Shown: one piece after another, positions 44,266 through 61,791 of the stretch | Position numbering within the stretch: the stretch's first letter is position 1 | How the letters are laid out: the number at the start of each line of letters is the position of its first letter | Source: an uncultured Candidatus Saccharibacteria bacterium | Lineage (GTDB): Bacteria; Patescibacteriota; Dojkabacteria; GCA-002793355 | Direction: 5' to 3' | DNA length: 64,000 nucleotides | Assembly: GCA_964525295.1 (NCBI GenBank) | Contig: CAZGEO010000002.1 | Location: 258,551-322,550, forward strand | Program-made: the position numbers and the translations under genes | Notes under the pieces: generated by a model | Told to the model about the DNA's origin: nothing | The model's database searches: none | What the model saw: only the letters and a program-made list of their open reading frames with translations

Positions 44266-45390
44266 ATGAAATTTAATGTACTTACATTTCTTGCGTTACT
44301 TTTTATAAATTTTTTTGTCACTATTCCGACTGTTCGGGCTGAAAGCGAAAAGACTGAAACTATCCAGGCGACGGTGCAAAGTATTCTTGAAGAGAAAGAA
44401 ATCGTATCAGAAACGCACCTAAGAAAGTATCAAAAGCTTCAGTTACAGGTCACTTCGGGTACTGATGTAGGTAAAATCATAATTATTGAAAATGGTAATG
44501 AGTATTCTTTGCAACAAATAACCTACAAACCTGGAGATAAGCTATTTATTTCGAAATTTTCAGATGGTGCCGGTGATTTTACTTACTTAATTGCTGGAGT
44601 AAATCGAAGTAGCGCTTTGTGGCTTTTATTTGCAATATTTATTTTTATGTCAATTTTGGTGGGTTCTAAAAAAGGTTTACTCTCGCTTTTTGCCATGGGG
44701 GTTTCCTTTTTAGTTTTGTTTTTTGTAATAATTCCCTCGATTCAACAAGGAAATGACCCGACGTTTAGTACAATTTTGGGATCATTGATTATAATTCCCG
44801 TCACATTTTATTTATCACACGGTTTCGACAAAAAGACTTCAGTTGCAGTTCTCGGGACACTGATAGCAATTGTAATCACGGGTATTTTGTCATATTTATT
44901 TGTTAATCTTACTCAACTTACAGGTATGATTGATGAGGAAACTATGATGCTTCAGGCGCGTAATGAGTCAGTCATGAATTTGAAGGGATTATTGTTAGCG
45001 GGAATCATAATTGGGGCATTAGGAGTTCTAGACGACATTACAACCTCACAAGCTGCAGTCGCTTTTCAGTTGTATGATGTTAATAATCGACTTACTTTCT
45101 GGGAACTTTTTCGACGTTCAACAGAAGTAGGAAAAGATCATATTGCGTCAATGATAAATACTTTAGTTTTGGCTTATACGGGAGCTTCTTTACCATTAAT
45201 TCTGCTGTTTACAACAAATCCAAGGCCAATTGTTGAAATTTTGAATTTTGAAATGATGACTGCAGAAATTGTTCGAACGCTTGTTGGCAGTATTGGTTTA
45301 ATTGTAGCGGTCCCAATTACGAATTTCATTGCCTGTTTGGCACTATTTAGTAAGAAAAATGACCAAAGGCACTTGCTAAAAGATTCGTAG
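44266..45390 (+). CDS. YibE/F-family polytopic membrane protein
   Basis: Signal peptide plus a multi-TM YibE/F-like C-terminal region. The track ORF begins at 44170 and overlaps the divergent gene, so the internal Met was chosen. Confidence 0.6.
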   Translation: MKFNVLTFLALLFINFFVTIPTVRAESEKTETIQATVQSILEEKEIVSETHLRKYQKLQLQVTSGTDVGKIIIIENGNEYSLQQITYKPGDKLFISKFSDGAGDFTYLIAGVNRSSALWLLFAIFIFMSILVGSKKGLLSLFAMGVSFLVLFFVIIPSIQQGNDPTFSTILGSLIIIPVTFYLSHGFDKKTSVAVLGTLIAIVITGILSYLFVNLTQLTGMIDEETMMLQARNESVMNLKGLLLAGIIIGALGVLDDITTSQAAVAFQLYDVNNRLTFWELFRRSTEVGKDHIASMINTLVLAYTGASLPLILLFTTNPRPIVEILNFEMMTAEIVRTLVGSIGLIVAVPITNFIACLALFSKKNDQRHLLKDS

Positions 45391-45406
45391 CTGTGTACGA
45401 TGATAA

Positions 45407-46210
45407 ATGGAAACAATACTGCCACTTTCTTCATTACTTTCATTTAAAGGTAAAAAGGTCCTAATTACCGGTTCTTCTTCAGGTATTGGTAAAGCAACTG
45501 CTATGCGATTTGCAGAAGCTGGAGCGGAATTATTACTACTTAATAGAAGTCTGCCAGATGAAAAAATGCCTGAATATGCTGAAAAATCGCCTAAAGTTCG
45601 TTTTTTTGCCGTTGATGTAGGAGTTAAAGAACAGGTTGACAAATTTTGGTCGGAATTAAAAGATGATGAACTTCCCGATATCATCGTAAATAATGCAGGA
45701 ATTTATCCAATTAAAGAGTTTCTAGAAGTAGATGAAGCGTTTTTAGATAAAGTGCTCGATGTTAATATGAATTCTGTTTTTTGGATGTCACAGAATTTCG
45801 TACAGCGAAGAAGAGCGTTGAAACTTGGGGGGAATATGATTAATATCTCGTCAATTGAAGCTGTTTTGCCAATGACAAAACATATGGTTCACTACTCAAC
45901 TAGTAAAGCTGGAGTTATCGCAATTACTCGAAGCGTTGCGCGAGATTATGGTAAAGATGGATTTAAAGCAAATGCAATTATGCCAGGTGGCATCATGACC
46001 GAAGGGACACGTTCAACGCAAATGGATGCATTGATTCACCTAAGATTCGATTTGTTCAAGGCAGGGTATGATTTTGCACAAAGATTAACAATGGGGCGCT
46101 GGGGAGAGCCAGATGAGATCGCAAAGGTGGCATTATTCTTGGCAAGCGATATGGCAAGTTACATGAATGGCGCAGTAGTACCGGTTGATGGTGGGTTTAC
46201 TAGCTCATAA
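45407..46210 (+). CDS. Short-chain dehydrogenase/reductase (SDR)
   Basis: TGSSSGIG Rossmann motif, YxxxK (YSTSK). Confidence 0.8.
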   Translation: METILPLSSLLSFKGKKVLITGSSSGIGKATAMRFAEAGAELLLLNRSLPDEKMPEYAEKSPKVRFFAVDVGVKEQVDKFWSELKDDELPDIIVNNAGIYPIKEFLEVDEAFLDKVLDVNMNSVFWMSQNFVQRRRALKLGGNMINISSIEAVLPMTKHMVHYSTSKAGVIAITRSVARDYGKDGFKANAIMPGGIMTEGTRSTQMDALIHLRFDLFKAGYDFAQRLTMGRWGEPDEIAKVALFLASDMASYMNGAVVPVDGGFTSS

Positions 46211-47441: not shown

Positions 47442-48150
47442 AGCTACTTGTTTCTTTAATCTTATTGAGCACGTCGTTGGTATTAGTGAACTGCTTGCTG
47501 GTTGTTTTGTTAAGAACGATGGCAGAATCGGGTTTTACATACTCGAGAATTGCACCTTGATGGGTGACAATTATGGCAGATGCACCTGATTCGACTAAAT
47601 ACGTATTCAGTTCGGTTCCAATAATTTTCAAACTTTGTATATCAACACCCGAGTCTGGTTCGTCGAGCAAAAGTAGCTGCGGTTTTTGGAATAGTGTGAG
47701 TAATATGTCTGCCCGCTTACGTTCGCCACCAGAGAAGCCATGGTTGATGTCTCGGTTAAGGAATTCGAAGAGTTTGAATTTTTTGACTAAATCTATTTCA
47801 TCAAATAAGAGTAGTGTATCGGGCTTACGTTTGAGCGCAATATTTATCATATTACTTAAGGTAATTCCCCTTAAGGCTGGTGGATGCTGAAAGGTGAATT
47901 TGATGCCAAGAGCTGCACGTTCATTTGCGCTTAGTGACGTAAGTTCTTTGCCTGAGCAGGCGATTTTCCCCTTGATTGAAACATCTGGGTAGCCGAAAAT
48001 CGCCTTGAGCAATGTAGTTTTGCCAGAGCCATTTGCCCCAAGGAGCGCAGCGACCCCACTTAATGGAAGAGCAAAAGATAGATCATGCAAAATTTCCTTG
48101 TTGGCAACAGATAGAGATACTTGAGCTACTTCAAGAAGTGGCTGATTCAT
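47425..48150 (-). CDS. sufC: Fe-S cluster assembly ATPase SufC
   Basis: Walker A GANGSGKTT, ABC signature, Walker B LLLLDEPDSG. Confidence 0.85.
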   Translation of the reverse strand: MNQPLLEVAQVSLSVANKEILHDLSFALPLSGVAALLGANGSGKTTLLKAIFGYPDVSIKGKIACSGKELTSLSANERAALGIKFTFQHPPALRGITLSNMINIALKRKPDTLLLFDEIDLVKKFKLFEFLNRDINHGFSGGERKRADILLTLFQKPQLLLLDEPDSGVDIQSLKIIGTELNTYLVESGASAIIVTHQGAILEYVKPDSAIVLNKTTSKQFTNTNDVLNKIKETSSYDLTN

Positions 48151-49033
48151 CTTTGGGCATGTGTTTCGTTAAAAATTCCTTGACTGCGGTAAGCGAGTCA
48201 TCATCAAGAATGGAGCATTCGTGAAAAGGTACGTTATGTTTATTGAAATATTTTTTGACCGACTCACGTTTTTCTTGAGTCGCTTCATCATATTTGGTGA
48301 GTAAAACGACTTCGGGCATTGTTGAGAGTTTTTCAGAAATATTTGCCAGTTCTTCTCGCATTGATTCATATGCTTCAACTGGATCATCATTGTCGTAACT
48401 TACAAAATGAGCAATTAGGCGAGAATATTCAGTATGTTTTACAAATCCAGTACCTAGACCTTTGCCTTTATGTGCGTGATCAATTAATCCCGGTAAGTCG
48501 AGTAATCTAAGTCCATTCATTCGACCCAACTGCGGTTCAAGTGTGGTAAAAGCATAAGCACCAGCTTTCGCATCAGCATTAGTGATGGCGGTAAGTAGGC
48601 TCGATTTTCCAGCATTGGGGTAACCAATGAAAATAATGTCAGATTTGATTTTTAACGTTAGGGTAATTCGTGCTGTTCTACCGTCGGTATCGGTCATCAC
48701 TTTTTCTGGCTTGATTTTGTATTTCTTCATGGTGACTGAGCCTAATGTTCCTTTGCCACCAGATAGGGCTTTCACTAATTGTCCTTCTTCTGAGATAATA
48801 ATTTTCTTGCCTTCTTCAGTTGTAATTTCGGTTGTTAAGGGAACTTGTAAAATCAAGTCTTCACCCTTGCTCCCGTGTTTATCTCCTTTTTTACCATCTT
48901 CACCATTTTGCGCACGATATTTCTCTCCTTCAATGTAGGAGCGAAAACCATAGAGATGCGCTGCTCCTTTGAAGTAGACATCGCCACCGTTGCCTCCATC
49001 ACCACCATCTGGGCGCAATTGTAATGTAGCCAA
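48131..49033 (-). CDS. obg: GTPase Obg (Obg fold plus G domain, no C-terminal OCT domain). The true start is probably up to 20 codons upstream with a non-canonical initiator.
   Basis: Gly-rich Obg fold (PDGGDGGNGGDV) and G1 GYPNAGKSS. The in-frame upstream extension FIILLDTITITIQSGNGGRGS continues the conserved Obg N-terminus. Confidence 0.8.
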   Translation of the reverse strand: MATLQLRPDGGDGGNGGDVYFKGAAHLYGFRSYIEGEKYRAQNGEDGKKGDKHGSKGEDLILQVPLTTEITTEEGKKIIISEEGQLVKALSGGKGTLGSVTMKKYKIKPEKVMTDTDGRTARITLTLKIKSDIIFIGYPNAGKSSLLTAITNADAKAGAYAFTTLEPQLGRMNGLRLLDLPGLIDHAHKGKGLGTGFVKHTEYSRLIAHFVSYDNDDPVEAYESMREELANISEKLSTMPEVVLLTKYDEATQEKRESVKKYFNKHNVPFHECSILDDDSLTAVKEFLTKHMPKDESATS

Positions 49034-49106: not shown

Positions 49107-49784
49107 TTAGCGAAAGAAAGTTACAAGTAGAAATAGAACGACAAAATATGCAGTTTGTATTAGGAATGAATGACCGAAGGTTTCGACTTTAATCTTTTCT
49201 TTTACTTTGTTACTTTGTTTTTTCCATAGAAAGCCGAGAATACTTGCAAATATTGCGCTCAGTACGAACCAACTTAAATAGTTGAGCAATGGTGGTGTGC
49301 CACCTGCCCATTGCCAGTAATTTAGCGCAATTGCGACTGGTTCAAGAACAATGTCGAAGAGAGTAGCGAAAATTGCCGTTAGGAGAATCTGAAGAGGCAA
49401 TTTTCGCACCTTAATCATTACACAAAAGAAGAAAGCTCCAAATACTACAAGAACCCAATTAACGCCAATCAATAAGGGTACGTTAAGAAAAGAGAGCCCG
49501 AGTATTGAACTGTACCAGTAATCGCCGAAAGGAAATCCAAATGCGACACCAGAGGCTTCCGCAATGAAACCTCCAAGAAAAATGACAAACGCTGACCATT
49601 TTAACGCAGAAGATTCAAAGAAGTTTGCCCGCCATAGCGTGAATATCGTCGCAATTAAAAGAAATAACGGCGTTAACTGTTGAGTAATACGCGCGAAATT
49701 TTCATTAGAAATTAATTGAGCAATAATACCCAAAAAATACAGGAGTAAAAGCACTAAGAACGTTGTTTTTGCTGAGTTACTCAT
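49107..49784 (-). CDS. Hypothetical polytopic membrane protein (6 TM)
   Basis: Hydrophobicity pattern only. Confidence 0.45.
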   Translation of the reverse strand: MSNSAKTTFLVLLLLYFLGIIAQLISNENFARITQQLTPLFLLIATIFTLWRANFFESSALKWSAFVIFLGGFIAEASGVAFGFPFGDYWYSSILGLSFLNVPLLIGVNWVLVVFGAFFFCVMIKVRKLPLQILLTAIFATLFDIVLEPVAIALNYWQWAGGTPPLLNYLSWFVLSAIFASILGFLWKKQSNKVKEKIKVETFGHSFLIQTAYFVVLFLLVTFFR

Positions 49785-49811
49785 TACTATAACTATATCA
49801 TAATGAGTAAT

Positions 49812-50975
49812 TTACAGATTTCTGACCACTTTATACAGATAGATTCCGCCAAGCGTAGCACTATTACTTGAACGTGAAACGTGAACATAGAAGGTGCCAT
49901 CAGAATCTTGAAAAATTCCTGCATAAGCAGGATTGCAAGGGAGTGGATTTGGATCTTTTCGTGGAAATGAATCTTTGGTGAATATAGGCTTTCCACTAGG
50001 AATCATTTCAGCCTCTGTCATTTTGATTGTTTTACTTCGGTGTAATACTGAAATCCATTGTTGGCTGTGAATACAGGCTAGGTTCATGTCGGCTGCCTCA
50101 CTTAACGTGTAATAGTAGCCATTATATTTAATCGTTCTCGCTGAACCGAAACCAATTGGACCAGTTGTTGCCCAATCAACATTTATTTTTAAGGCATCAT
50201 AACGATCAAGAATTGCGTCATTAATAATTACTTCCCAATTGTCGAAATCCTTTGTTTTTGCAATGCTTCGGTAACCATTAATACCATCGTAGCCATGAAA
50301 TGTAACAAAATAATAATCGTTCCTTAACTCCACAATGTCGAATGTTCCTTCATCAAGAATTTTTCCATAAGGTGAAGTTCTTGCGATGCGGGCGCAATCT
50401 GCTTCTTGATTGATGCAGATTACGCCCCATATCTCACCAGAATTAATGACAGGATTATTACTACTGTCCTTGCTGTAATTACCTATAGGAGTTGGTCCTT
50501 TATGAGTTAAGTGACAACCGTTCCAAACTCCGTTACGATCTAAACATTGAAATAAATAATGCCATATACCTGTTTGTGCATTAAAAATGATATCTCCATC
50601 TGTTGCTGCACATTCCCAAGGACTTCCAGGAATATTATCAATTATGACTATTGGTGATGTCCATGTCTTACCCTTATCTGATGATTCTCTTACTTCAATT
50701 TGCATTAATTGTTTATTTGCGCAGAATGATGGAGTATTTTGCCAAACAATTTTTCTGTTGAATAAATACCACTTTCCTCCAAATACTTCGATATGTACTC
50801 CTGCTTCAGAACCTAATTGCCAATCGGGATTATTGTGTGTATAGGTTTGATAGAGAGAAAGTGTTGCTTCATTGTTCCACAAATCTTCAACGCTAGGTCG
50901 GCTTAAAAAGGCAGTAGTTGTGGTTGAAAAGGTTGTTAAGAACAAAAAGATCGAAACTAAGAAACTTTTCAACAT
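49812..50975 (-). CDS. Secreted BNR/Asp-box repeat protein (sialidase / glycoside-hydrolase-like beta-propeller)
   Basis: N-terminal signal peptide and an SxDxGxTW Asp-box (SSDKGKTW). Confidence 0.45.
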   Translation of the reverse strand: MLKSFLVSIFLFLTTFSTTTTAFLSRPSVEDLWNNEATLSLYQTYTHNNPDWQLGSEAGVHIEVFGGKWYLFNRKIVWQNTPSFCANKQLMQIEVRESSDKGKTWTSPIVIIDNIPGSPWECAATDGDIIFNAQTGIWHYLFQCLDRNGVWNGCHLTHKGPTPIGNYSKDSSNNPVINSGEIWGVICINQEADCARIARTSPYGKILDEGTFDIVELRNDYYFVTFHGYDGINGYRSIAKTKDFDNWEVIINDAILDRYDALKINVDWATTGPIGFGSARTIKYNGYYYTLSEAADMNLACIHSQQWISVLHRSKTIKMTEAEMIPSGKPIFTKDSFPRKDPNPLPCNPAYAGIFQDSDGTFYVHVSRSSNSATLGGIYLYKVVRNL

Positions 50976-51188
50976 TATAGTAATTATATCGTACTATGGT
51001 AGACTTATTGATGGAATACAAAGTTGAAGTCATAAAAACGATACAATCATTTTGGGGAGAGGTTACGGTCCCTCAAGCAGAAATTAATCAAACGATTGCA
51101 AATTACGTCAAAGATTGCTGGGAAGTGTTTTCAATTGTCCCATTAACGCAAGCCTACGGTGCTACATCACAGTTACTAATCACGTTTG

Positions 51189-51662
51189 TTAAGAAATAGC
51201 ATTACTTTTTTTGCCGATATTATTGGCTTGACGCAATGTATTTATATCCAGTTTCTTCATTGCTAGCATAGCTTGCATACCCCCGGGGGTATCAATTAAT
51301 TCAGCAATATTCTCGGGTACAATTTGCCAACGAACACCGTATTTATCTTGACACCAACCGCATTCAGATTCGGCACCGCCATTTGTGGTAAATGCTTGCC
51401 AGAAATAATCGATCTCAGTTTGATCTTTGCATGTTATTTCGAAAGAAATTGAATCGTTAAATTCATGGTGCTTTCCGGCTGCCATAAGACCGATTCTTAG
51501 ACCTCTGATAGTCATTATGACAATGTGTGTTGTTCCTGGTGGAGTATTTTCGTATTTTTGCTCGTCTTCAATTATTGCATCTGCCGCGAATATGTCTTTA
51601 TAGTATTTTGCAACAGCTAACGCATCGGTAACGTACCAGAGAAATGGAGTAATCTTTTGCAT
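51189..51662 (-). CDS. PhnB-like VOC-family protein (the 3-demethylubiquinone-9 3-methyltransferase-like domain)
   Basis: MQKITPFLW N-terminus characteristic of this family. Confidence 0.6.
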   Translation of the reverse strand: MQKITPFLWYVTDALAVAKYYKDIFAADAIIEDEQKYENTPPGTTHIVIMTIRGLRIGLMAAGKHHEFNDSISFEITCKDQTEIDYFWQAFTTNGGAESECGWCQDKYGVRWQIVPENIAELIDTPGGMQAMLAMKKLDINTLRQANNIGKKSNAIS

Positions 51663-51695
51663 AATAGAATAGTCAATTTATTGTTTAGTATAGCA

Positions 51696-52622
51696 TCAAT
51701 ACCTTCGTTTTCTGCCTTTTCCGGCTTTGAGATTTGAATACTTTCTAAATTCACAACCTATTCCTTCCCAGTTTTCTGCACTAAGATATATAGGCTGGCC
51801 ATTTATGGTTGGGAGTAATAATTGTCTGTCGAATTTGCCAACTAAGTTCAGGTTAACCTGTTCCGGGGGCTCATTTTTATTCAATAATGCCATGATAGGT
51901 TTTGAGCCGGGGCCGATGGGGAATTCTTTATACAAATCAATGTATTGGGGGAATTGATAGGCAATATCTATAAGCACCTCTGTCCAAAGAAATTTTAACT
52001 TGAAACCAAATTCCGGCAGGATACGATCAAGTGCTTCGGTGACAGAGAATCTATTGAATCTCGAAATCGTTTTTGCGATTTTTGGAATAACAGTAGGGTA
52101 GTATAAACAAAAGAAATTTTCGCGCGTATTCCACTCAGAGCGTTGAATCGTGCTGATCGGAAATATATACGCAGTTCCATATTTAGGAGAAGGCAGACTA
52201 CGCAATTTTTCAGCGAGTTTAATGTTATTTTTATGGTTGAAATCTAGAAAACCAAGCTTGTCGATCGTTTCTGTCAGGGCGATACTCCTTGAAAAAAGCA
52301 TATTAAGTAACCAAAGTTGAAAGTTGGATTTCATATCAAGTTGTCTTTTGTGAAAGTAGAGGGTTTGCCTGTCAAATTCGCGGTAGATATTACAAAAGCG
52401 ATAATCGTTCAAAATTTTATCTTTTGTATACGGGCGAACTTCATTGTTCTGCTTCTTTTCCCAAATACGAAGTCGTTCCGCAATAAACTGAAATATTTCA
52501 TCTAAGACATGCTGATTTAATGAAATTTCCTTATTTGCTGACACAGGCTTGATAGTGTGGAATTCCCAATGATTGTATAGTTCACGGTATTGTCTTGGTA
52601 GCTCCATTGCAAATTTTTGCAT
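51696..52622 (-). CDS. Hypothetical protein (308 aa), unknown function
   Basis: ORF with a conserved-looking block W-x-K-x8-YTKD-x-IL-x-YRFCNIYREFDRQT. No confident assignment. Confidence 0.45.
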   Translation of the reverse strand: MQKFAMELPRQYRELYNHWEFHTIKPVSANKEISLNQHVLDEIFQFIAERLRIWEKKQNNEVRPYTKDKILNDYRFCNIYREFDRQTLYFHKRQLDMKSNFQLWLLNMLFSRSIALTETIDKLGFLDFNHKNNIKLAEKLRSLPSPKYGTAYIFPISTIQRSEWNTRENFFCLYYPTVIPKIAKTISRFNRFSVTEALDRILPEFGFKLKFLWTEVLIDIAYQFPQYIDLYKEFPIGPGSKPIMALLNKNEPPEQVNLNLVGKFDRQLLLPTINGQPIYLSAENWEGIGCEFRKYSNLKAGKGRKRRY

Positions 52623-52702
52623 TAATTCGAAAGATATTCAAATTTATAAAAATGTTTCGGGGAATAAGTTGAAAATCTTTTTTATTAATGCCATAACGTA
52701 GT

Positions 52703-53080
52703 ATGTTAAAAATCTTTATTGCAATACTTTTAGTTTTAGTTGTCATTTTTGTGGTCCCCATTGTCGTCTATGGTATTTTATCGCCTGTACTAGGTATTAA
52801 GACACCAGAAGGAGCATCTCCCATGCTATTTTTATTAAGCGTTTTCGTTACAAAAATTGGCACGGCCATTGGCTTTGTTATATTGTTTTATTTAGCGCGT
52901 GCGTATTTCAGCGATAATTGGCTGATTTATGCCCTCATTTGGTTCGGGATGTATACAGTCAACGAAATTGGACAGGCCATTATCCCAACTTATTCATGGA
53001 AAGAAGCACTTGCCGGAGTTATTTCTGAGGCAATGTATTTTCCGCTAGCTGCAATAATTACGAAAAGTCTTGTTTCGTAA
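52703..53080 (+). CDS. Small hypothetical membrane protein (4 TM, 125 aa)
   Basis: Hydrophobicity pattern only. Confidence 0.35.
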   Translation: MLKIFIAILLVLVVIFVVPIVVYGILSPVLGIKTPEGASPMLFLLSVFVTKIGTAIGFVILFYLARAYFSDNWLIYALIWFGMYTVNEIGQAIIPTYSWKEALAGVISEAMYFPLAAIITKSLVS

Positions 53081-53097
53081 TTGAACATTCTGTTTGT

Positions 53098-54114
53098 CTA
53101 CGAAAACTTTTCAAAAGTCTCGATCACTTTGAATTCATCAGACAATTGACAGAATTTGTCGTCAAAATCGTTGTTCTTGATACCAGCAATTATTGCTTTG
53201 ACCATGTACTTCATGGATCTACTAATAAGCGAATTTCCAAGAGTAATTTCTGGCATGGTGTCTTCAATTTTTATCTGTTCTAGTGGTTGATTATTTGAGT
53301 AGCTTACCCACAACCCTTTCTGGTCTGAGTATAAGGCAATACCCTTTGTTCCGATAATTTCGAGAGTAAAATCTTTATAGCCCTGGCAATAGGTATCATT
53401 TGCAAGCTGAATAGAAACCTCATCACTTGTTACAAATGTAGCAGAAAATTGACTGTCTGAAGTTGCAGGTTCTTCAAAGCGAGAATCTTGATAGGCGATT
53501 TTGTTCAGACAACCCGTAGTTATGAAGGGGGTTCCTAGCAAATAATTAACAAGATCTAATTGATGCGTACCAACTGAGTATACTTGTCCACCACCGAGTT
53601 CGAGTTTCTGATTCCAATTCTCTTTGTAATCTTCGCGCGAATACCAATTGAGATATGCATTCGAGCGGATTGTAAGGATTTTGCCGAACTTTCGCTCGGC
53701 AATAAGAACTTTTAAGTATGCAACAACTGGACTAAATCGAGCTTCGTGATTAACTACAACGCGTTGCTTTTTCTTTGATGCAGAGGCAATCATTTCGCAA
53801 AGTTCTTTGCTGTTGAGTGCCGCAGGCTTTTCGATGAGAATTGGCGTGTCAAATTGTAGTGCAAAATCAAACATTTCTTTGTGGGCTGAACTAACGCTCG
53901 CAATTATTATCAAGTCAAATTTCTGTGATTTGAGCATTTCTTGCCAGTCAAGAAACGTCTTAACATCTCGAATTTCTTCCGCAATTTTTTCTAGCTTTGC
54001 TGGGGTGCGTCCTGACATTGATATTTCTATTGACGGATCAATGGCCCTGAAATTCTGAGCAATGACTTTTCCGAAGCCTGTGCCGATTATGGCAATTTTC
54101 AATTGATTTTGCAT
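53098..54114 (-). CDS. Gfo/Idh/MocA-family NAD(P)-dependent oxidoreductase
   Basis: N-terminal Rossmann IAIIGTGFG. Characteristic two-domain length. Confidence 0.75.
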   Translation of the reverse strand: MQNQLKIAIIGTGFGKVIAQNFRAIDPSIEISMSGRTPAKLEKIAEEIRDVKTFLDWQEMLKSQKFDLIIIASVSSAHKEMFDFALQFDTPILIEKPAALNSKELCEMIASASKKKQRVVVNHEARFSPVVAYLKVLIAERKFGKILTIRSNAYLNWYSREDYKENWNQKLELGGGQVYSVGTHQLDLVNYLLGTPFITTGCLNKIAYQDSRFEEPATSDSQFSATFVTSDEVSIQLANDTYCQGYKDFTLEIIGTKGIALYSDQKGLWVSYSNNQPLEQIKIEDTMPEITLGNSLISRSMKYMVKAIIAGIKNNDFDDKFCQLSDEFKVIETFEKFS

Positions 54115-54132
54115 AAATAATTATATAAAAGA

Positions 54133-54561
54133 TTATTTCATAACACTGACTTTATACTCGATCACTTTTCTCAAATTCTCAAGGATATCTTCTTCAGTAA
54201 TTTTGAATATTAATGGCTTAGACTTGCCAACGTTTTTGGCTGCTTTGAACGTATTTTTTAGCACTTCGTCGATAGATAGTTTATATACGTCATTTATGTA
54301 TCTTTCTGGTAAATATATCGTGGCTTGCATATATCCTGGCCACGCTGACATCCAAAGTATAGTTTTATTTTTTTTCTGTACTTTACATAACCATGATTTT
54401 CCATCATTGTAGTAGCGCCATTCAATTAAGAAACCGTAATCTTCAAATAGCGCTAGGAGTTTTAAGTATGGGGAATATCCATCTTGAAGAATATTCTTTA
54501 AGATTTCATGAGTTGGGTAGACATTCTTGTCTCTTAGTTCGGTTATGTTAATGGTCGCCAT
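54133..54561 (-). CDS. Hypothetical protein (142 aa; DUF3788-like by recollection)
   Basis: ORF in an operon-like array. No motif. Confidence 0.4.
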   Translation of the reverse strand: MATINITELRDKNVYPTHEILKNILQDGYSPYLKLLALFEDYGFLIEWRYYNDGKSWLCKVQKKNKTILWMSAWPGYMQATIYLPERYINDVYKLSIDEVLKNTFKAAKNVGKSKPLIFKITEEDILENLRKVIEYKVSVMK

Positions 54562-54562
54562 G

Positions 54563-55123
54563 TTAGTTATTCACTATTAAATCTAGTAGGAATGGAAATT
54601 CTTTGTAAGTTTCCCCTGCTGTGCTTATACTGAAATGCGCTTGACCTCGAAGTAAGATTAGTGTGCCGTCAACTTTTTCTCGTAAATACTGTGCATGGGC
54701 TAGTGGGCAATAGGGGTCATTATCAGAATGAATAAACATAAAGCTCTTGGCCTTGGTTTTAATTTTTTCAAAATTGAAAGGTTTCAGAAAAAGTTCATCG
54801 AGAGCATCCCAATTCAAATTATCTTTGAATGAACCTACAAGGTAGCAGGTATTAACTGTAACGTCTTCTGGCAGCGCTTCGAGTAATCCAAAAATTGCTA
54901 CTGCACCTGAAGAATGACCGATCAGAATTGTGTCTTTGTTAAATTTGATAGCACTATTGCCAAGAAGAAAGTCATTGTATTTTTGAATGTTTGGCTTGTC
55001 ACAATCTGGTAATTGTGGCGCGTAGACTTGATAGTTAACCGCCTCTAATTCATTTTTTAACCAAGGAAACCAATTTTTATTTGGATTGTCTGAGGTTCCA
55101 TGCAGTATAAGAGCATTTTTCAT
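54563..55123 (-). CDS. YdeN/RBBP9-like alpha/beta serine hydrolase
   Basis: ILHG N-terminus, GHSSGA nucleophile elbow, about 186 aa. Confidence 0.6.
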   Translation of the reverse strand: MKNALILHGTSDNPNKNWFPWLKNELEAVNYQVYAPQLPDCDKPNIQKYNDFLLGNSAIKFNKDTILIGHSSGAVAIFGLLEALPEDVTVNTCYLVGSFKDNLNWDALDELFLKPFNFEKIKTKAKSFMFIHSDNDPYCPLAHAQYLREKVDGTLILLRGQAHFSISTAGETYKEFPFLLDLIVNN

Positions 55124-55482
55124 AATGATTCTTTTTCAATTTGAATAATTTGTTCAATATAATACTTGCATCTCTTTTTCTCAATCTCTTCAACATTTTG
55201 AAGTGTAATATGCCTACGCCATTTTCCTTCACCTTGTAATACTGAGTATTTATCGGTCAACTCATTGCCACGGCTGAATACGAGTGACACATGTTTTGAA
55301 CTTACATAAAGCCCCCCAATTAAAACATTTTTTATATAAAACCCAATACCACCGTAGATGAATTTTTCTTCTAGATCAGGGGAAACTAGGTAAAACAGAG
55401 AGTATAGAGATTTTATGATTTCTGCCTTTGTGGGATCTATGGTTTCGAGCTCAGAGATAAACTGTTTGATTTTGCGATCCAT
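55120..55482 (-). CDS. Small DUF1801-like protein
   Basis: Size and pattern only. Confidence 0.4.
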   Translation of the reverse strand: MDRKIKQFISELETIDPTKAEIIKSLYSLFYLVSPDLEEKFIYGGIGFYIKNVLIGGLYVSSKHVSLVFSRGNELTDKYSVLQGEGKWRRHITLQNVEEIEKKRCKYYIEQIIQIEKESL

Positions 55483-55484
55483 GA

Positions 55485-56453
55485 CTAAAGTAGGGAATTA
55501 AATAATTCAGGGTTATCTATTAAAGTCTTTATTCTTCTTAAGTAAACTTCTGATTCATTATAATCATCGGCCTGAATGACATTGTAGGCAAAGTAAAGGT
55601 AACACATAAAAAGTGTTGATTCCCAAAGCGATTTAGGCGAATAGGGCAATTCTTTTATCGAGCGATAACCTTCAATAATTTTTTTTGCAACGGAAAAATT
55701 CATATCAGCAGATCTAAACATGCCAAATTCTAATAATGCGACGGTCAACTCGATAATTGGATCTCCGATTGCCCAATCGTTAAAATCGAGAAGGTATATG
55801 CCGTCTGCTGAATCAATAAGATTCCAAGGCCAGATATCTTTGTGAAGAAATTGTTTTTTGGTTGAGTTATCAAGTTTCTTTATGACGTCGTCGATTAAGG
55901 GTAAATGATCTTCGTAGACAGCTAGGTCGAATTGATAATTTCTTCGTTTTATTTCATCGTATAAACCGGAATTAACATCATCGAATTCTTCGCGGAAATT
56001 TATGATAGGGAAGGCATTTACATTGATTTTCTGCGCAAACAACTCAACTTGAGCAACTATTTTACCAACTTCATACATTTTCTCGCCAGTGAACACGATT
56101 TTTTCAAATCCGATTCCTTCAATAAATTCTGAAGTAACGATCGTAAAACCCTTGTATTCTTGTAGTATCTTTTGGTCAAGACCGGTAATCAATGGGGGAA
56201 TTAATATACCAGATTTTTGAAAGATTTCGATCGCTTGAATTTCCTTCTCGATTTTTTCGCGATTAGATTGACCGTGACTGTAGACTTTGATCGCATAATC
56301 AAAATCAATTCCTTTGGCGCGGTAGTTGTTATTAGCAATACCACTAAGGTCAGAAATTTTTACATTATCAGTAGAATTACGATAAAAGCTTAATATTTCA
56401 AGTACTTCTGATTTTGAGAAATTTGCTTTTTTGAATTTCATGTGAGTGAGCAA
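55485..56453 (-). CDS. Aminoglycoside/choline-kinase-type phosphotransferase (APH family). The real start is probably the internal ATG, at about 56441.
   Basis: Brenner motif HKDIWPWN and DFND(W) catalytic and Mg-binding aspartates. The annotated start is TTG; TATAAT lies immediately upstream. Confidence 0.7.
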   Translation of the reverse strand: MLTHMKFKKANFSKSEVLEILSFYRNSTDNVKISDLSGIANNNYRAKGIDFDYAIKVYSHGQSNREKIEKEIQAIEIFQKSGILIPPLITGLDQKILQEYKGFTIVTSEFIEGIGFEKIVFTGEKMYEVGKIVAQVELFAQKINVNAFPIINFREEFDDVNSGLYDEIKRRNYQFDLAVYEDHLPLIDDVIKKLDNSTKKQFLHKDIWPWNLIDSADGIYLLDFNDWAIGDPIIELTVALLEFGMFRSADMNFSVAKKIIEGYRSIKELPYSPKSLWESTLFMCYLYFAYNVIQADDYNESEVYLRRIKTLIDNPELFNSLL

Positions 56454-56808
56454 TTATACCGCAGGCGAAATAACGTTGTCGAATTTGCAGAATTTCGGGT
56501 AATAATTGGAAATGGAGGGGAAAACTTGGTTGAAAGAGTTGGACAAACACAGGAACTTTTTCCATCTCAATCCTTTCGAAAGTATACGTATTCCACAGCT
56601 TTCTTTCAACGGGGTTGAGTATTTTGATCAAGACCCATTTTCTTGAAATCACCAATGTGGCGTACTAATAGCATATTTTAGGTTTTATGAGAAAAGATAA
56701 TCAAGAAAACAACGGATTATCAATACGTTTAGGGTGAAGACATAAAAATCTTTACGCCAAAATGCATAAGGATTCAAAGCGAGGGACATGGACATTTTAA
56801 GGAACAAC

Positions 56809-57366
56809 TTACTTCGTTTTTGATGACAACCAAATTGCGAGCTTTTCCCATTGCGAAGTGTCTGCATTTTCGTCAGCCATTGGTAAATTGAGTGCATCGC
56901 ATTCAGCATTAGTCTTTAAATCTTTTCTAAAAGAAACTATTCTGTCAATAATATTGCCTTCACCAGCTGGTTCATTTTTGATTATTCCAACTAACTTTCT
57001 TGTAAATATCTTTGTTTGCGCTGCATCCTTATAGCAAGCGTAATTTTGTAAAATAATCGACTTATCTGTTTTACTTTTCATTAAATTCATCAAATCCTCA
57101 AGTGTAAACCACTCCATAAGTGAATGCATATATGGTCCCGGAAATCCATTTAGTGCTGGAATACTCCAACCTGAATCCATAACTACAAGGGGTTCATTTA
57201 ATTGTGAAAATGCCTGATCTGCTTTGAAAAGGGCGATTTGTTGTGCGTCTTCACCTTGTGGCTCAACAAGTGAAAGCTTAACCTGTTCCGCAACAATGTT
57301 ATGCTTACTAAGGTAGTACATCGCTGCTTGGAATTTACCTTGGTTACCTGTAACGATTTTTAGCAT
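56809..57366 (-). CDS. Ham1/RdgB-family non-canonical purine NTP pyrophosphatase
   Basis: TGNQGK N-terminus and DSGWSIPALNGFPGPY motif. Confidence 0.75.
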   Translation of the reverse strand: MLKIVTGNQGKFQAAMYYLSKHNIVAEQVKLSLVEPQGEDAQQIALFKADQAFSQLNEPLVVMDSGWSIPALNGFPGPYMHSLMEWFTLEDLMNLMKSKTDKSIILQNYACYKDAAQTKIFTRKLVGIIKNEPAGEGNIIDRIVSFRKDLKTNAECDALNLPMADENADTSQWEKLAIWLSSKTK

Positions 57367-57588
57367 TTCTATTTAAGGATTATTTATTTTTGATCGAACT
57401 AACCTAACCTTTTTCAACAATATGTATTGAATGTCTTCGAATCAAATGATTATATTGTATAGTCAACTGTATATTCTGTACAGGTTGTTCTTTAAAATTA
57501 TTCAACTAAAATTTGTACTGATCAATATATAGGGAATGGTGTATATATGAGCTTTTTGAGATTTTTGATTGTATAGTTGACTATAAAG

Positions 57589-57662
57589 TGGTTGCGGGAC
57601 CTGGATTCGAACCAAGACTCACGGCTTCAAAGGCCGCTGTCCTACCATTAGACGATCCCGCA
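57589..57662 (-). tRNA. tRNA-Gln (anticodon TTG), CCA encoded
   Basis: Manual cloverleaf from the reverse complement: acceptor tgcggga/tcccgca, anticodon loop ctTTGaa, T-arm cttgg-ttcgaat-ccagg, 3' ACCA. Confidence 0.85.
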
Positions 57663-57753
57663 GCAAGTGAATTGTAACATTAACTAGGAACGAACTGCAA
57701 GATATTAAATTTAGTAGTTCACTCGAAGAAATAATGAGAAAGCAAACTGGGGG

Positions 57754-59082
57754 TTAGCAAGTCTTTACGAAAGCGTCTTTTCCAAACAATTTCCAACGAA
57801 GCCACATTAATTTCGAGAAAACGTTGAGATTGTTACCAGTATTATTCCTCCATTGTTCGGCAATTCGAATGACCGCAGGTGACGCTGCTTTTGTTTTTGG
57901 CAGTTCTACAATACTATCAGGTAAGCTGACGGGTTTACTGTTGTAGATCAATTCCTGAACCGGACCTTTTTTAAGTAGATTTAACGCAACGTAAACGATT
58001 GCTGGGTGTAAATGTCCTTTTCGAACACCATCCATAAGTATTGCTGAAATTTCGTTGATGTCGATACGTTCCTTGCGATAAATTCTATCTTCAGCAAGAG
58101 CAGCAATTTTGTCGATTACTGAGTAAATCAATGCATCAAATGGGATTTCTGTTCCAAATAGAGCATTGGGGTAACCTGTTCCATCAATATTTTCGTGATG
58201 AGCTCCTGCAGTTTTACTATATTTTCTTAAACTAGGAAATGATTGCAATATCATTGAGGTGAAGTTCGCATGTTTTTGCATTTCAATATACTCACCATGA
58301 TTTAATCGTGCTGGCTTTTTTAAAATTTTTTCATCGATTTCAATTTTTCCTACATCATGAAGCACCGCACCTTTTCTAAGCTGTCGTAATGCTTCTCCAG
58401 AATAACCAAATTTCTGTCCAATAAGTGTTGCTAGACTCCCCATTATGTGTGAATGATTAACGGTTTCAATATCTCGCTCTGCAAGCGTAGTTAATAAGGC
58501 ATTCGTGGCAGCATCTTCACATTGAATTTCTATGTATTTTCTTCTCTCAGCAGACAATTCTTCGTATTGCTGACCATTTAGTAGCGTTAATAATGTCACT
58601 CTTTCTGCAATTTGCGCATTTCTAATGCCCAAAAAACGGGTTAACCATGATTGATATTCGGTGGTAATTCCTCGATCAATTCCTACTGTGCAGATCCCTT
58701 TGTAAGTGCCATTGATTGGAAAAACATAACAGTACACTCCATTCACAATCGATAATTCAGCAGGATTTGCAAATGCAGCAGCGTAACGCTGTTGTACACT
58801 ATTTTCAACTGACACGGCTGAATTCGTATTTCTTTTGATTGGATCTCGATAGACACTTCTAAAGATTACCCTATCATAGGTACTTGAAGCATTACCGGCA
58901 ATTGTTTCAAACTTTCCGGTGACAGTATTTTGAATGCCAATAAATACTGAAGTACGAACCCCTAAATTTGTTGAAATTTCTCTCTGAATGCTTAGTGCTT
59001 CAGCTTCAATACTTTGTTTGTTATCGTGATTGACTCGAGTTGTTTCTAGTGCTGCCAATGTAGGCGACGAATTCCGAGGCAT
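57754..59082 (-). CDS. HD-GYP phosphodiesterase with an N-terminal sensor (GAF-like) domain
   Basis: HDVGK and GAHHENIDGTGYP HD-GYP signatures. About 200-aa N-terminal domain. Confidence 0.75.
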   Translation of the reverse strand: MPRNSSPTLAALETTRVNHDNKQSIEAEALSIQREISTNLGVRTSVFIGIQNTVTGKFETIAGNASSTYDRVIFRSVYRDPIKRNTNSAVSVENSVQQRYAAAFANPAELSIVNGVYCYVFPINGTYKGICTVGIDRGITTEYQSWLTRFLGIRNAQIAERVTLLTLLNGQQYEELSAERRKYIEIQCEDAATNALLTTLAERDIETVNHSHIMGSLATLIGQKFGYSGEALRQLRKGAVLHDVGKIEIDEKILKKPARLNHGEYIEMQKHANFTSMILQSFPSLRKYSKTAGAHHENIDGTGYPNALFGTEIPFDALIYSVIDKIAALAEDRIYRKERIDINEISAILMDGVRKGHLHPAIVYVALNLLKKGPVQELIYNSKPVSLPDSIVELPKTKAASPAVIRIAEQWRNNTGNNLNVFSKLMWLRWKLFGKDAFVKTC

Positions 59083-59256
59083 AGACAGAATTATATCATT
59101 TAGATGATGCTGGTGGAAATAAAATATACTAAAGTGAAAGTGGGCTGACGGGGTGGGGAGTGGGCTGTAACTTCTTGATTAACCATGCTCCTTCACGTAT
59201 ACTGTTATATTGTCGCAATACATGATTGCGGTGAAAATAAAATAGAAAGACGCCCT

Positions 59257-60279
59257 ATGGCACTGCCTCAGCATTTCGCCATTGATTTTGGAACTCACTC
59301 AATTAAGCTCGTTAATCTGGTTAAGCGAGGTAAATCGATCGAACTTAGAAATATTGGATCAGCTCAAACTCCTCCAGAAGTTCTAAATAGTTATAAAGAA
59401 GAACATAAAACACAGCTAATTGATGCAATCAAAGGTTTAGTTGCAGAATCTCGTGTTCCAGAGAAAGAAGTTGCTATTGCATTGCCAGAAAGTGCAGTTT
59501 TCAGTCGTGTTCTGACGATTCCGAAAGTTAGTGACGAAGAGTTAACAGATGCCGTTTATTGGCAATTAAAACAATATCTTCCGTATCCAGTCGAAGATGT
59601 GCAAAGTGATTTCACCTCGCTAACAGTTGATCCAAGTGGTCAACGAAAAGTTTTAGCTGTAGCTGCCCCAAAGAAATTGGTTGATTTATACGTTGAACTT
59701 CTTGAAAGAGCGGGGCTCATAACAGTAGCAATCGAATCAGAAACACTAGCTATTTTACGATCACTGAAACTCGCGCACGAAGTTTCTGATGCAATTGTTC
59801 TTGATTTCGGCTCAAATACTACAGATATGGCAATAATGAAAGAAGGAGAACTATATTTCTCTCAAAGCATTGCAACAGGAGGTGATTTGTTGACGAAAGC
59901 ACTAGTCAACGAATTCCAACTTTCATTTGCTCAAGCAGAAGAGTATAAGAGAATTTATGGCATGCGATCAGATGCGGTAGAGGGCAAAATTCGTAATGCA
60001 ATGAAGCCAATACTTGACATGATTATCACCGAAGTTTTGCGTGGTATCGAATTTTATAAAACAGAAGTTGGTGCTGTTCCTCCAAATACTGTCTTGATGG
60101 CTGGCGAAGCTGCTTTACTTCCTGCATTACCAGAATATTTGAATGCGATTCTTGGATACGATGTACGCGTTGCAGATCCATGGAGGCCAATCGTAGTACC
60201 AAATAACGTTGCAGAGATCGTTCGAAAAAGCAGTCCCGCGTTTGCGACTTCAATTGGTTTATGTTTGAAAGAAGATTAG
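59257..60279 (+). CDS. pilM: Type IV pilus assembly ATPase-like protein PilM
   Basis: Actin-like fold. N-terminus ALPQHFAIDFGTHSIKLV. The track ORF starts at 59185; the conserved N-terminus begins at the internal Met. Confidence 0.8.
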   Translation: MALPQHFAIDFGTHSIKLVNLVKRGKSIELRNIGSAQTPPEVLNSYKEEHKTQLIDAIKGLVAESRVPEKEVAIALPESAVFSRVLTIPKVSDEELTDAVYWQLKQYLPYPVEDVQSDFTSLTVDPSGQRKVLAVAAPKKLVDLYVELLERAGLITVAIESETLAILRSLKLAHEVSDAIVLDFGSNTTDMAIMKEGELYFSQSIATGGDLLTKALVNEFQLSFAQAEEYKRIYGMRSDAVEGKIRNAMKPILDMIITEVLRGIEFYKTEVGAVPPNTVLMAGEAALLPALPEYLNAILGYDVRVADPWRPIVVPNNVAEIVRKSSPAFATSIGLCLKED

Positions 60280-60280
60280 T

Positions 60281-60850
60281 ATGGGAGTAAATCTACTGCC
60301 ACAAGCTAGCGAACACGATTACAAAAAGGCAGACAATTCGCTGCGTAGTTTAGTAATGATTGTTGTTTGGCTTGGTATTCTCGCCATGATATTTGTAATG
60401 CTATTCTTTAATCAGGCAGTACAAAGCGGAAAATTAAAAGAAGCTGAAGCTCGTCGAACCAATTTACTTACAAAAATCGGTAATCTTGGAACATTTCATG
60501 ACGAATACTACACGTTGGCCTATAAAACCGTAATTCTTTCGAGAATTAAAACTGAACAGTATATACCCAGCGTTATTGGTGATTATGTAAAAGAAAAGGT
60601 TGCGTCAAAAGCTACGGTACAGCAATATTATTTTGATGCGAATGGCGAAATTCGCTTATCAATTGAAGCTCCAACATTTAATAGTGCGTTGTTGATTTGG
60701 CATGATTTGTTAAAAGACAAAACTGTTATGCAAGAATTGAACCTAACCTCTTTTGGTCAAGACTCAGAAGGAAAAGTAGCCTTTCAATTGAAAGGAGTGT
60801 TGAATCTAAATGAACTTTACGAACGAAATGTCGACGGTGCTACCAACTAA
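60281..60850 (+). CDS. pilN: Type IV pilus assembly protein PilN
   Basis: NLLPQ N-terminal motif plus a single TM. Confidence 0.7.
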   Translation: MGVNLLPQASEHDYKKADNSLRSLVMIVVWLGILAMIFVMLFFNQAVQSGKLKEAEARRTNLLTKIGNLGTFHDEYYTLAYKTVILSRIKTEQYIPSVIGDYVKEKVASKATVQQYYFDANGEIRLSIEAPTFNSALLIWHDLLKDKTVMQELNLTSFGQDSEGKVAFQLKGVLNLNELYERNVDGATN

Positions 60851-61622
60851 TACACAACAACAGAATGCTAAAACGATTGCTTATGTTCAGCAACGAAAAG
60901 GCAGTAATAAGGTATATGTGCAAGGAATAGTCGCGGTAATTGTATTCGTAATTTCGTTGATAGTAGCAATTTTTATATTTGTTCCCTACATACAAAAAAC
61001 TGCAGAAATATCGAAAAAGGTTGAAGCGGTTGAGTCTGATATTACGGCACTAGAAAAGAAGTATAAAGAAATTAATGGTTATGATCGCGATGAGCTGGCT
61101 GCGCAGTTGAAGCTGGTTAGTTACTACATTCCAGATACTATCCGTGTTGCAAATTTAGCAACGTTTATTAATGCAAACGCAACTAAATATGAATTAGCTG
61201 TAGCTCGTCTAGGCATTAATGAAGACGTCGCTGAGATAAAAGCATCAGTTGACGAGGCAGAAAAATCAAGATTACTTGGTAGTTTGAAAAGTGAGAAAGA
61301 AATATTTCTCGGGCGAGTTGAGGGTCCCTTTAGTTTTAGCGGTTCGCGTGATGCAATATTTGATTTTCTCGATTTTCTCGTTTTAGGTGGTTATGCAACA
61401 AATTTTGATCAAGTAAGTATTGTTGGTGCCGGTAAAGATTCCTGGACAGTAAACTTTTTCGCAGTATATTACTACTTAGAACCATTAACAGAAGTCGAAG
61501 CCGGAAGGCAATTGGTTCCGATTCAAAAAGAATTGATTTCAAATTTAACAATTCCGGTAATTTCAACTCCTTCGGTTACGCCCTCGCCTTCAGTTAGCGT
61601 GACGCCGACAGTATCGCAATAG
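60810..61622 (+). CDS. pilO: PilO-like type IV pilus assembly protein (Ser/Thr/Pro-rich C-terminus)
   Basis: Single TM plus coiled-coil. Position after pilN. No diagnostic motif. Confidence 0.55.
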   Translation: MNFTNEMSTVLPTNTQQQNAKTIAYVQQRKGSNKVYVQGIVAVIVFVISLIVAIFIFVPYIQKTAEISKKVEAVESDITALEKKYKEINGYDRDELAAQLKLVSYYIPDTIRVANLATFINANATKYELAVARLGINEDVAEIKASVDEAEKSRLLGSLKSEKEIFLGRVEGPFSFSGSRDAIFDFLDFLVLGGYATNFDQVSIVGAGKDSWTVNFFAVYYYLEPLTEVEAGRQLVPIQKELISNLTIPVISTPSVTPSPSVSVTPTVSQ

Positions 61623-61682
61623 GATCTTTACTTGAGAAGAGATATTTGCATTGTATTAATTCATCGATTATAATTACGAGAT

Positions 61683-61755
61683 GCCAAGGTAGCTCAGTCG
61701 GTAGAGCATGCGCCTGAAGAGCGCGTGGTCGTCAGTTCGATTCTGACCCTTGGCA
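61683..61755 (+). tRNA. tRNA-Phe (anticodon GAA), CCA not encoded
   Basis: Manual cloverleaf: acceptor gccaagg/ccttggc, D-arm gctc-agtcggta-gagc, anticodon loop ctGAAga, T-arm gtcag-ttcgatt-ctgac. Confidence 0.9.
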
Positions 61756-61791
61756 TTTTTTACGACTATTCCAAATATAGTATGATTAAGA

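Follow-up and report, generated by a model that had tools for sequence, protein, structure and literature searches.

An HD-GYP phosphodiesterase gene beside pilM in a Dojkabacteria genome: a probable accessory insertion in the tRNA-Gln/pilM spacer

The window analyzed here is a stretch of 64,000 nucleotides (64 kb) of contig CAZGEO010000002.1 (assembly GCA_964525295.1, positions 258,551 to 322,550), from an uncultured bacterium deposited as Candidatus Saccharibacteria and placed by GTDB in the Dojkabacteria; its G+C content is ~38% across the whole length. An HD-GYP phosphodiesterase gene of 442 amino acids (aa) is located on the minus strand (57754..59082, including the stop codon at 57754-57756), between a tRNA-Gln(ttg) gene and the type IV pilus assembly gene pilM, from which it is divergently transcribed. 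The initial annotation had read this gene pair, together with a G-rich tract and a direct repeat in the shared promoter region, as a regulatory switch that couples second-messenger turnover to pilus expression. Comparison with related genomes points to another explanation: the gene, whose N terminus has no detectable relatives, is probably an accessory gene residing in the tRNA-Gln/pilM spacer, and its adjacency to pilM is a tolerated insertion and not an inherited coupling.

Domain organization of the HD-GYP protein

The product of the open reading frame (ORF) at 57754..59082 is a genuine member of the HD-GYP family. Pfam HD_5 (PF13487) matches aa 200-339 with 75.4 bits (cut-off, 27.2; E = 5.9e-21), and the two motifs for which a complete HD-GYP domain had originally been called are found in this ORF, HDVGK at aa 242-246 (nt 58345-58359) and HHENIDGTGYP at aa 295-305 (nt 58168-58200). 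Sequence searches against solved structures retrieved V-cGAP3 (E = 4.7e-22), PmGH (3.7e-17), and PA4781 and DvhD (both ~1e-10). In an AlphaFold model built with an 85-sequence alignment, aa 180-380 have a predicted local distance difference test score (pLDDT) of >90. Foldseek searches with this model gave PmGH (4mcw) as the top match and also retrieved PA4781 (4r8z, template modeling score [TM] 0.78), DvhD bound to cyclic di-GMP (c-di-GMP) (9rbz), Bd1817, PgpH, and V-cGAP3, with E values of 6e-10 to 6e-9 for PmGH, PA4781, and DvhD. Model confidence, Foldseek matches, conserved columns, and the PmGH ligand list together delimit the catalytic domain to aa 204-380 (57943..58473, minus strand).

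HD-GYP domains are defined by ligands in the order H...HD...H...HH...D together with the motif HHExh(D/N)GxGYP (bioRxiv 10.1101/2021.11.05.467447). The protein retains every invariant column of the 85-sequence alignment, namely, H210, H242, D243, K246, H271, E297, G301, G303, Y304, and D324, and the columns of the motif and ligand residues (H210, H242, D243, H271, H295, H296, D324, and HHENIDGTGYP) are invariant or at least 90% conserved. Aligned with the published metal-ligand list of PmGH (PMC4159591), E206, H210, H242, D243, H271, H295, H296, and D324 correspond to the PmGH ligands E185, H189, H221, D222, H250, H276, H277, and D305, D204 and K246 correspond to the catalytic residues D183 and K225, and GYP falls at positions 303-305. 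All eight PmGH-type metal ligands are present, meaning that the domain is not degenerate at the metal site. The position of E206 is occupied by E/D in 27 of 84 homologues and by Y/F in 46; the carboxylate at this position assigns the protein to the subgroup for which a trinuclear site is predicted. E206-T207-V208 aligns with E185-T-Q of PmGH, and the third position is not the Gly of the E/D-T-G signature of the trinuclear subgroup.

The alignment therefore leaves the annotated HD-GYP residues intact as far as the metal ligands are concerned, and a second-shell Arg/Asp pair is replaced, by Ile213 and Ala327. Positions 213 and 327 change together among the 84 homologues (G/T, A/H, G/Q, and others), which suggests that Arg/Asp is a covarying second-shell pair in HD-GYP domains.

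The catalytic domain is preceded by a long connecting helix (aa 141-203; 58474..58662, minus strand), predicted by AlphaFold with a pLDDT rising from 71 to 95, which resembles an S-helix linker, a type of helix that is common in front of C-terminal HD-GYP domains (bioRxiv 10.1101/2021.11.05.467447). The region N-terminal to it (aa 1-140; 58663..59082, minus strand) is predicted to have a mixed alpha/beta structure with low confidence (pLDDT of 30-60 with the alignment and 34 in single-sequence mode) and is presumably a sensor module without detectable relatives. The GAF label given to this region in the initial annotation could not be upheld. No Pfam family, GAF included, matches aa 1-205 even at E <= 1, a PDB sequence search with the N-terminal region gave no match, no confident fold was predicted, and hhalign comparison with the N termini of 18 GAF-HD-GYP homologues returned a probability of 0.1%; comparison with the N termini of REC- and other HD-GYP homologues gave no usable assignment either. 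An exhaustive HMMER search of aa 1-196 against 1.84 billion representative proteins gave, besides the query protein, no matches other than P0123 and P0124, two giant repeat adhesins (2112 and 4529 aa). These adhesins contain a 31-aa motif (YQxWLxxFxG) in up to 35 copies, whose unit YQAWLANFAG resembles aa 141-152 of the HD-GYP protein, and they were rejected as homologues, the resemblance being judged a chance motif multiplied by repetition. There are hints of a GAF- or PAS-like N terminus: BLASTP alignments to GAF-HD-GYP proteins extend into the last GAF hairpin and helix, and the predicted order of helices and strands, with a 60-residue helix leading into the catalytic domain, is compatible with a GAF or PAS module plus S-helix.

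At the other end of the protein, a C-terminal tail (aa 381-442; 57757..57942, minus strand) is modeled as low-confidence helices (pLDDT of 42-61); the last 68 aa have no Pfam match, and the C-terminal ~60 residues have no known relatives. No transmembrane segment was found (maximal Kyte-Doolittle 19-residue mean, 1.14), and the tail lies outside the most amphipathic stretches. Membrane targeting was rejected because a hydrophobic segment is lacking and the tail is not notably amphipathic.

The tRNA-Gln/pilM spacer in related genomes

The divergent neighbor, pilM (59257..60279, plus strand, 340 aa), is confirmed by TIGR01175 (E = 2.8e-58; 197.6 bits compared to a cut-off of 133) and Pfam PilM_2 (E = 1.6e-44). 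Its start is the ATG at 59257 (MALPQHF), and the protein begins with MALP(Q/L)HFAIDFG in all relatives. An in-frame ATG at 59185 was rejected as the start, because it lies upstream of the conserved -10 box and the relatives start at MALP. With pilM starting at 59257, the HD-GYP/pilM intergenic region measures 174 bp (59083-59256) instead of the ~100 bp first reported.

Seven related loci were available, and the region upstream of pilM was readable in six of them (L002-L006 and L008). In five Candidatus Dojkabacteria/Patescibacteria genomes or metagenome contigs, full-length PilM is 80-83% identical, and two further contigs gave partial matches. None of the six readable relatives has this HD-GYP gene upstream of pilM; the pair is common only to a 99%-identical strain, and the expected synteny with pilM is thus absent. 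What the relatives have in this place varies. In L003 and L005, pilM is preceded at 132-143 bp by a divergent tRNA-Gln(ttg) gene; in L004, an unrelated 232-aa ORF, oriented like the HD-GYP gene, stands between tRNA-Gln and pilM; and in L002, L006, and L008, a 181-aa membrane ORF lies upstream of pilM. No Pfam family was found for these cargo ORFs.

The edges of this variable slot can be traced in the window. Its left anchor is the tRNA-Gln(ttg) gene (57589..57662, minus strand; detected by ARAGORN and with 64 bits by the Rfam tRNA model), which is adjoined by GAATTGTA(A/C)CATT, conserved in the window, L003, L004, and L005. Conserved boxes, TTGCAG-17-TACAAT on the minus strand (57669..57699), are the predicted promoter of tRNA-Gln and would represent the ancestral left insertion edge; the predicted pilM promoter, TTGATT-17-TATACT (59175..59203, plus strand; promoter scan), is likewise conserved and would represent the right one. 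In the window, ~1.5 kb separates these two anchors, a distance taken up by the HD-GYP gene and its own predicted promoter.

The gene is as narrowly distributed as its position. Among 5.8 billion protein clusters, only two entries are related to the HD-GYP protein over its full length, one identical to it and the other, from another sample, a 99% variant; the next-best matches share 29-45% identity in the HD-GYP core only. In L009, one of two further assemblies of the same species (the other being L001), identity amounts to 98.4% in the gene, 99.4% in the intergenic region, and 99.6% in pilM. The gene differs from that of L009 by 15 synonymous and 6 nonsynonymous-codon nucleotide differences over 299 and 1027 sites, respectively; the resulting dN/dS of ~0.1 indicates that the gene is maintained under purifying selection. 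The window and L009 are 98-99.6% identical from tRNA-Gln to the pilN-like gene, and similarity is lost immediately beyond the tRNA-Gln 3' end (57589; L009 3500-4101), suggesting that the tRNA marks a strain-level recombination or island boundary.

Variability extends beyond the spacer. From obg (48131-49033) to pilM, the window carries ~8.5 kb of assorted accessory genes, compared to one or two genes in L003 and L004. Compared in this way, the obg-pilM region, including the tRNA-Gln/pilM spacer, appears to be a flexible-genome hot spot for unrelated accessory genes. Since the spacer is variable among Dojkabacteria, the back-to-back position of the HD-GYP gene and pilM would reflect insertion tolerance.

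The accessory genes at 49107-57366 include carotenoid-synthesis-like, GFO/IDH/MocA oxidoreductase, DUF3788, DUF1801, serine hydrolase, APH-type kinase, and Ham1 ITPase genes, along with several ORFs without a family. One of the proteins encoded in this stretch (51696-52622, minus strand, 308 aa) matches the helical domain of 5-hydroxymethyldeoxyuridine (5-hmdU) DNA kinase (PF18723, E = 1e-19), a domain of phage thymidine-hypermodification pathways that is unexpected in a chromosome of the candidate phyla radiation (CPR). Downstream of pilM, two small-protein genes (189 and 270 aa; 60281..61622, plus strand) occupy the places of pilN and pilO. Neither 60281-60850 nor 60810-61622 has a Pfam or NCBIfam match, and their order downstream of pilM is conserved in relatives; of the back-to-back arrangement with pilMNO in the initial annotation, the divergent pilM stands, and pilN and pilO are assigned by position and size only. 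A tRNA-Phe(gaa) gene (61682-61756) lies between the pilO-like gene and ftsQ, indicating that the pilM cluster is linked to ftsQ-ftsA-ftsZ in this lineage; it is found downstream of the pilM cluster in all five relatives that could be checked (L002-L006). Farther away, an 811-aa protein with matches to TrwB/VirD4-type coupling proteins and HerA/DUF87 ATPases (24233-26668, plus strand) is encoded directly after a mraZ-mraW-ftsI-mraY-like cell-wall block.

Promoters, G tract, and repeats in the intergenic DNA

A consensus scan of 57400-59400 placed the best promoter match (10/12, with an extended -10) in front of the HD-GYP gene, TTTCCA-18-TGnTATAAT at 59090..59119 on the minus strand. Just 7 nt separate the -10 box of this predicted promoter from the ATG, which suggests that the mRNA is leaderless or nearly so. 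The predicted pilM promoter, conserved as TTGnnn-17-TATACTG, shows invariant columns TTG...TTC.C.TATACTG in five aligned genomes (the window and L002-L005), and its boxes are likewise visible in L006 and L008. In alignment, the pilM leader of the window is longer than the leaders of the relatives and unrelated to them.

A G-rich element (59139..59167, plus strand) lies in the stretch that separates the two predicted -35 boxes and belongs to neither predicted transcript. It consists of the 20-nt unit AGTGGGCTGACGGGGTGGGG and a repeat of the first 9 nt of this unit, so that AGTGGGCTG occurs at 59139-59147 and again at 59159-59167. Within it, the G-quadruplex (G4) motif GGGCTGACGGGGTGGGGAGTGGG (59142..59164, plus strand) has four G runs of at least 3, with loops of 5, 1, and 3 nt. 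It is the sole motif of four G runs of at least 3 with loops of 1-7 nt on either strand of the 64 kb, where first-order Markov simulations give an expectation of 0.045, and its G4Hunter score of 2.04 is the maximum of the window. Its description as a canonical G4 tract that stands out is borne out: the tract is a genuine compositional outlier, and as a regulatory element it is putative only. The runner-up score, 1.96 at position 1278, belongs to GGGGTGGCGCGGGTGGGG (1278-1295, plus strand), a tract with three G runs lying antisense within an Ig-domain ORF (409-1356).

The G tract is identical in L001 and L009, indicating that it is not an assembly error. In the six relatives, no G4 motif is found within 300 nt upstream of pilM, nor is there one in the ~50 kb of their loci, so the tract is not conserved. 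Folding of an 80-nt context by ViennaRNA with G-quadruplex energies preferred a hairpin over the G4. The 9-mer direct repeat of the initial annotation is present at its reported coordinates and is not unusual on its own, exact 9-mers being repeated within 30 nt at ~12 places in the window; at no more than one mismatch, the count of AGTGGGCTG in the window is not above chance, with no other copy in a promoter region. The element is most simply read as a G-rich unit of 20 nt that was partly duplicated in tandem, within DNA specific to this lineage.

The intergenic DNA also contains a longer direct repeat of 26 nt. Copy A (59101..59126, plus strand) overlaps the -35 box and spacer of the predicted HD-GYP promoter, and copy B (59219..59244, plus strand) lies in the pilM 5' leader, in a segment without a counterpart in relatives. 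The copies are identical at 21 of 26 positions, a value not attained in 300 shuffles of the intergenic region, and they bracket the G tract and the pilM promoter. The repeat is unique to these sites in the window, where a search for a regulon found no further copies of the box or of the 9-mer, and it is otherwise present only in L001 and L009. It could be a rearrangement scar or a shared operator. An Rfam search of 57400-59400 at E <= 1 returned the tRNA only, with no cyclic-dinucleotide riboswitch or other RNA element; a hairpin in the pilM leader was rejected as an RNA element because it is no better than shuffled sequences (z = -0.9).

Interpretation and comparison with known systems

We favor the following scenario as the probable explanation. 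The ORF would encode a cytoplasmic cyclic-dinucleotide phosphodiesterase composed of a ~140-aa N-terminal module, an S-helix-like linker, and a PmGH-like catalytic domain. Most likely, this enzyme would hydrolyze c-di-GMP to pGpG or GMP in a metal-dependent reaction; the alternative substrate would be 3'3'-cyclic GMP-AMP (3'3'-cGAMP). The N-terminal module would gate activity via the linker helix. Together with a promoter of its own, the gene would have been placed between the divergently transcribed tRNA-Gln and pilM genes, in a spacer that elsewhere is empty or carries unrelated ORFs.

Several observations weigh against this scenario. Only seven related loci are available, and none falls between 83% and 99% PilM identity. 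In G+C content the HD-GYP gene does not differ from the remainder of the genome, its flanks carry neither a mobility gene nor a target-site duplication, and an inspection of the two junctions for terminal repeats or a target-site duplication revealed nothing convincing. Hence, it is the comparison with relatives that speaks for an insertion, and loss of the gene in every relative is a possibility; on the sequences at hand, a survivor of repeated loss seems less likely than a species-level acquisition. The geometry of the intergenic DNA, with the G tract midway between the two -35 boxes and bracketed by a significant 26-nt repeat, is compatible with a regulatory role. As for the enzyme, the equivalent of PmGH D308, a position with D/E in 71 of 84 homologues, is Ala327 (nt 58102-58104), and that of R192, the hydrogen-bond partner of D308 and R in 64 of 84 homologues, is Ile213 (nt 58444-58446); the D308A substitution hit PmGH activity as severely as metal-ligand mutations (PMC4159591). 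Both members of the pair are jointly gone in ~14% of otherwise intact homologues, so the change may be compensated, and activity is not assured.

The window offers little signaling context for the gene. A Pfam scan for signaling domains covered 64 of 66 selected ORFs of the window (outside it stand 8677-8898, 73 aa; 45174-45443, 89 aa; and 56398-56655, 85 aa), and none of the 64 scanned ORFs has a GGDEF, EAL, PilZ, or CD-NTase domain, in line with the earlier remark that no GGDEF/EAL gene is visible; the window is part of a genome with a largest contig of 384 kb, so that the orphan label of the initial annotation is putative. Apart from the HD-GYP gene, a single candidate for dinucleotide turnover is seen in the window, a gene for a 348-aa DHH/DHHA1 protein (36107-37153, minus strand); NrnA-type nanoRNases, which can degrade pGpG and pApA, belong to this family. 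PADLOC found no defense system matching the HD-GYP gene or its neighbors, and a link to defense of the cyclic oligonucleotide-based antiphage signaling system (CBASS) type was rejected on that account. Full-text literature searches for HD-GYP proteins or diguanylate cyclases in Patescibacteria returned almost nothing; diguanylate cyclase genes have been reported in ultra-small groundwater metagenome-assembled genomes (PMC9938205).

Could the protein be a different kind of HD-GYP protein? One alternative is a phosphodiesterase of the V-cGAP type, specific for 3'3'-cGAMP or another cyclic dinucleotide, which might act on dinucleotides that an epibiotic CPR cell does not make. V-cGAP3 is the best solved-structure match by sequence, with 82 bits compared to 66 for PmGH, and no GGDEF or EAL gene was found among the scanned ORFs of the window. 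We nevertheless regard this as unlikely: V-cGAP3 has Tyr at the E206 position, whereas the E-T-x carboxylate found here is typical of the PmGH trinuclear group, c-di-GMP enzymes outrank V-cGAP3 by structure, and the protein has a single HD-GYP domain, unlike V-cGAP3 with its tandem HD-GYP domains. No established sequence rule exists for substrate choice, the window represents a fraction of a genome and the groundwater genomes mentioned above do carry diguanylate cyclase genes, and no defense-system model was matched. That V-cGAPs are HD-GYP proteins (PMC4423081) is in keeping with this alternative without outweighing these points. Another alternative, distinctly doubtful in our view, is a catalytically impaired protein that acts by binding or scaffolding, for example, through protein-protein contacts. 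The Ala327/Ile213 replacement and the severity of D308A in PmGH argue for it, and inactive HD-GYP proteins acting through interactions have been described (bioRxiv 10.1101/2021.11.05.467447). However, degenerate members typically lose some of the eight ligands, the D/K catalytic pair, or the HHExxDGxGYP motif, all of which are kept here, and the Arg/Asp pair is replaced in a share of otherwise intact homologues; the low dN/dS shows constraint, though it does not discriminate between the two roles.

The other alternatives concern the intergenic DNA. In the switch of the initial annotation, the G-quadruplex and the direct repeat would co-regulate the HD-GYP gene and pilMNO, coupling cyclic-dinucleotide turnover to pili. 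The statistical prominence of the tract is in its favor, as are its place between the -35 boxes, at about -46 to -68 from the pilM start and about -59 to -81 from the HD-GYP start, the negative supercoiling from divergent transcription, which could favor G4 formation, and the significant 26-nt repeat, with one copy at the gene-proximal end on either side. We consider the switch improbable, because the tract is absent in six relatives despite a conserved pilM promoter and the gene pair is nowhere syntenic outside the species. That L009 has an identical tract carries no information, as the intergenic region differs there at only 1 of 174 positions; the tract is outside both predicted transcripts, a hairpin is preferred in silico, no Rfam element was found, and 9-mer repeats of this kind are frequent in the window. 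A similarly low probability is given to an operator without any G4, in which two AGTGGGCTG half-sites would bind a DNA-binding regulator. The exact 9-mers are spaced 20 bp start to start, on the same helix face and upstream of both -35 boxes, which would be a classical activator-site position, but this site has no second promoter-region copy at one mismatch or fewer, no adjacent regulator gene, and no conservation in relatives, its window count is not above chance, and local 9-mer repeats are common. Type IV pili are thought to be used by these cells for attachment or DNA uptake, and a broader proposal would have a recently acquired HD-GYP enzyme with a new sensor domain wired to the pilus operon by newly built DNA, the G4 and the 26-nt box, so that degradation of cyclic dinucleotides, possibly host-made, is co-regulated with the pili; we hold this to be very improbable.

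Returning to the accessory-gene explanation, the protein would, if active, be an example of cyclic-dinucleotide signaling hardware in a CPR bacterium, and the ~140 aa at its N terminus would form a sensor domain without known relatives. The locus also gives reason for caution: the adjacency to pilM looks meaningful in a single genome and dissolves when relatives are compared, because unrelated accessory genes appear to have a hot spot in the tRNA-Gln/pilM spacer. As far as these sequences go, the G-rich tract is a statistical oddity confined to one species.

Set beside known systems, the G tract resembles bacterial promoter G-quadruplex motifs in its four G runs of at least 3, loops of 5/1/3 nt, G4Hunter score of 2.04, and location in an intergenic promoter region; unlike them, it is not conserved, lies outside the predicted transcripts, and is known as a sequence motif only. 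Among HD-GYP proteins, V-cGAP3 (VCA0931 of Vibrio cholerae, 5Z7C) is the best structure match by sequence (E = 4.7e-22, aa 203-355), and both proteins have the HD, HHExxDGTGYP, and DRxYR motifs, but V-cGAP3 carries Tyr at the E206 position, keeps the Arg/Asp pair, and ranks 16th by structure. PA4781 (4R8Z) and DvhD (9RBZ), whose domains are c-di-GMP phosphodiesterase domains, share the same fold with a target-normalised TM of 0.75-0.79; their N-terminal partners are REC and PAS, and their sequence E values reach only ~1e-10. PmGH of Persephonella marina (4MCW, 4MDZ, and 4ME4) differs in its N terminus, a GAF domain that is not demonstrable here, in having Asp and Arg where this protein has Ala and Ile (D308 and R192), and in lacking the extra ~60-aa C-terminal tail; in addition, this protein has E-T-V in place of the E/D-T-G signature, and identity is ~26%. 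Nevertheless, PmGH is the top Foldseek match, and the two proteins share an N-terminal cytoplasmic module connected by a long helix to a C-terminal HD-GYP domain, the eight ligands of the trinuclear site, including the equivalent of E185, and the equivalents of D183 and K225.

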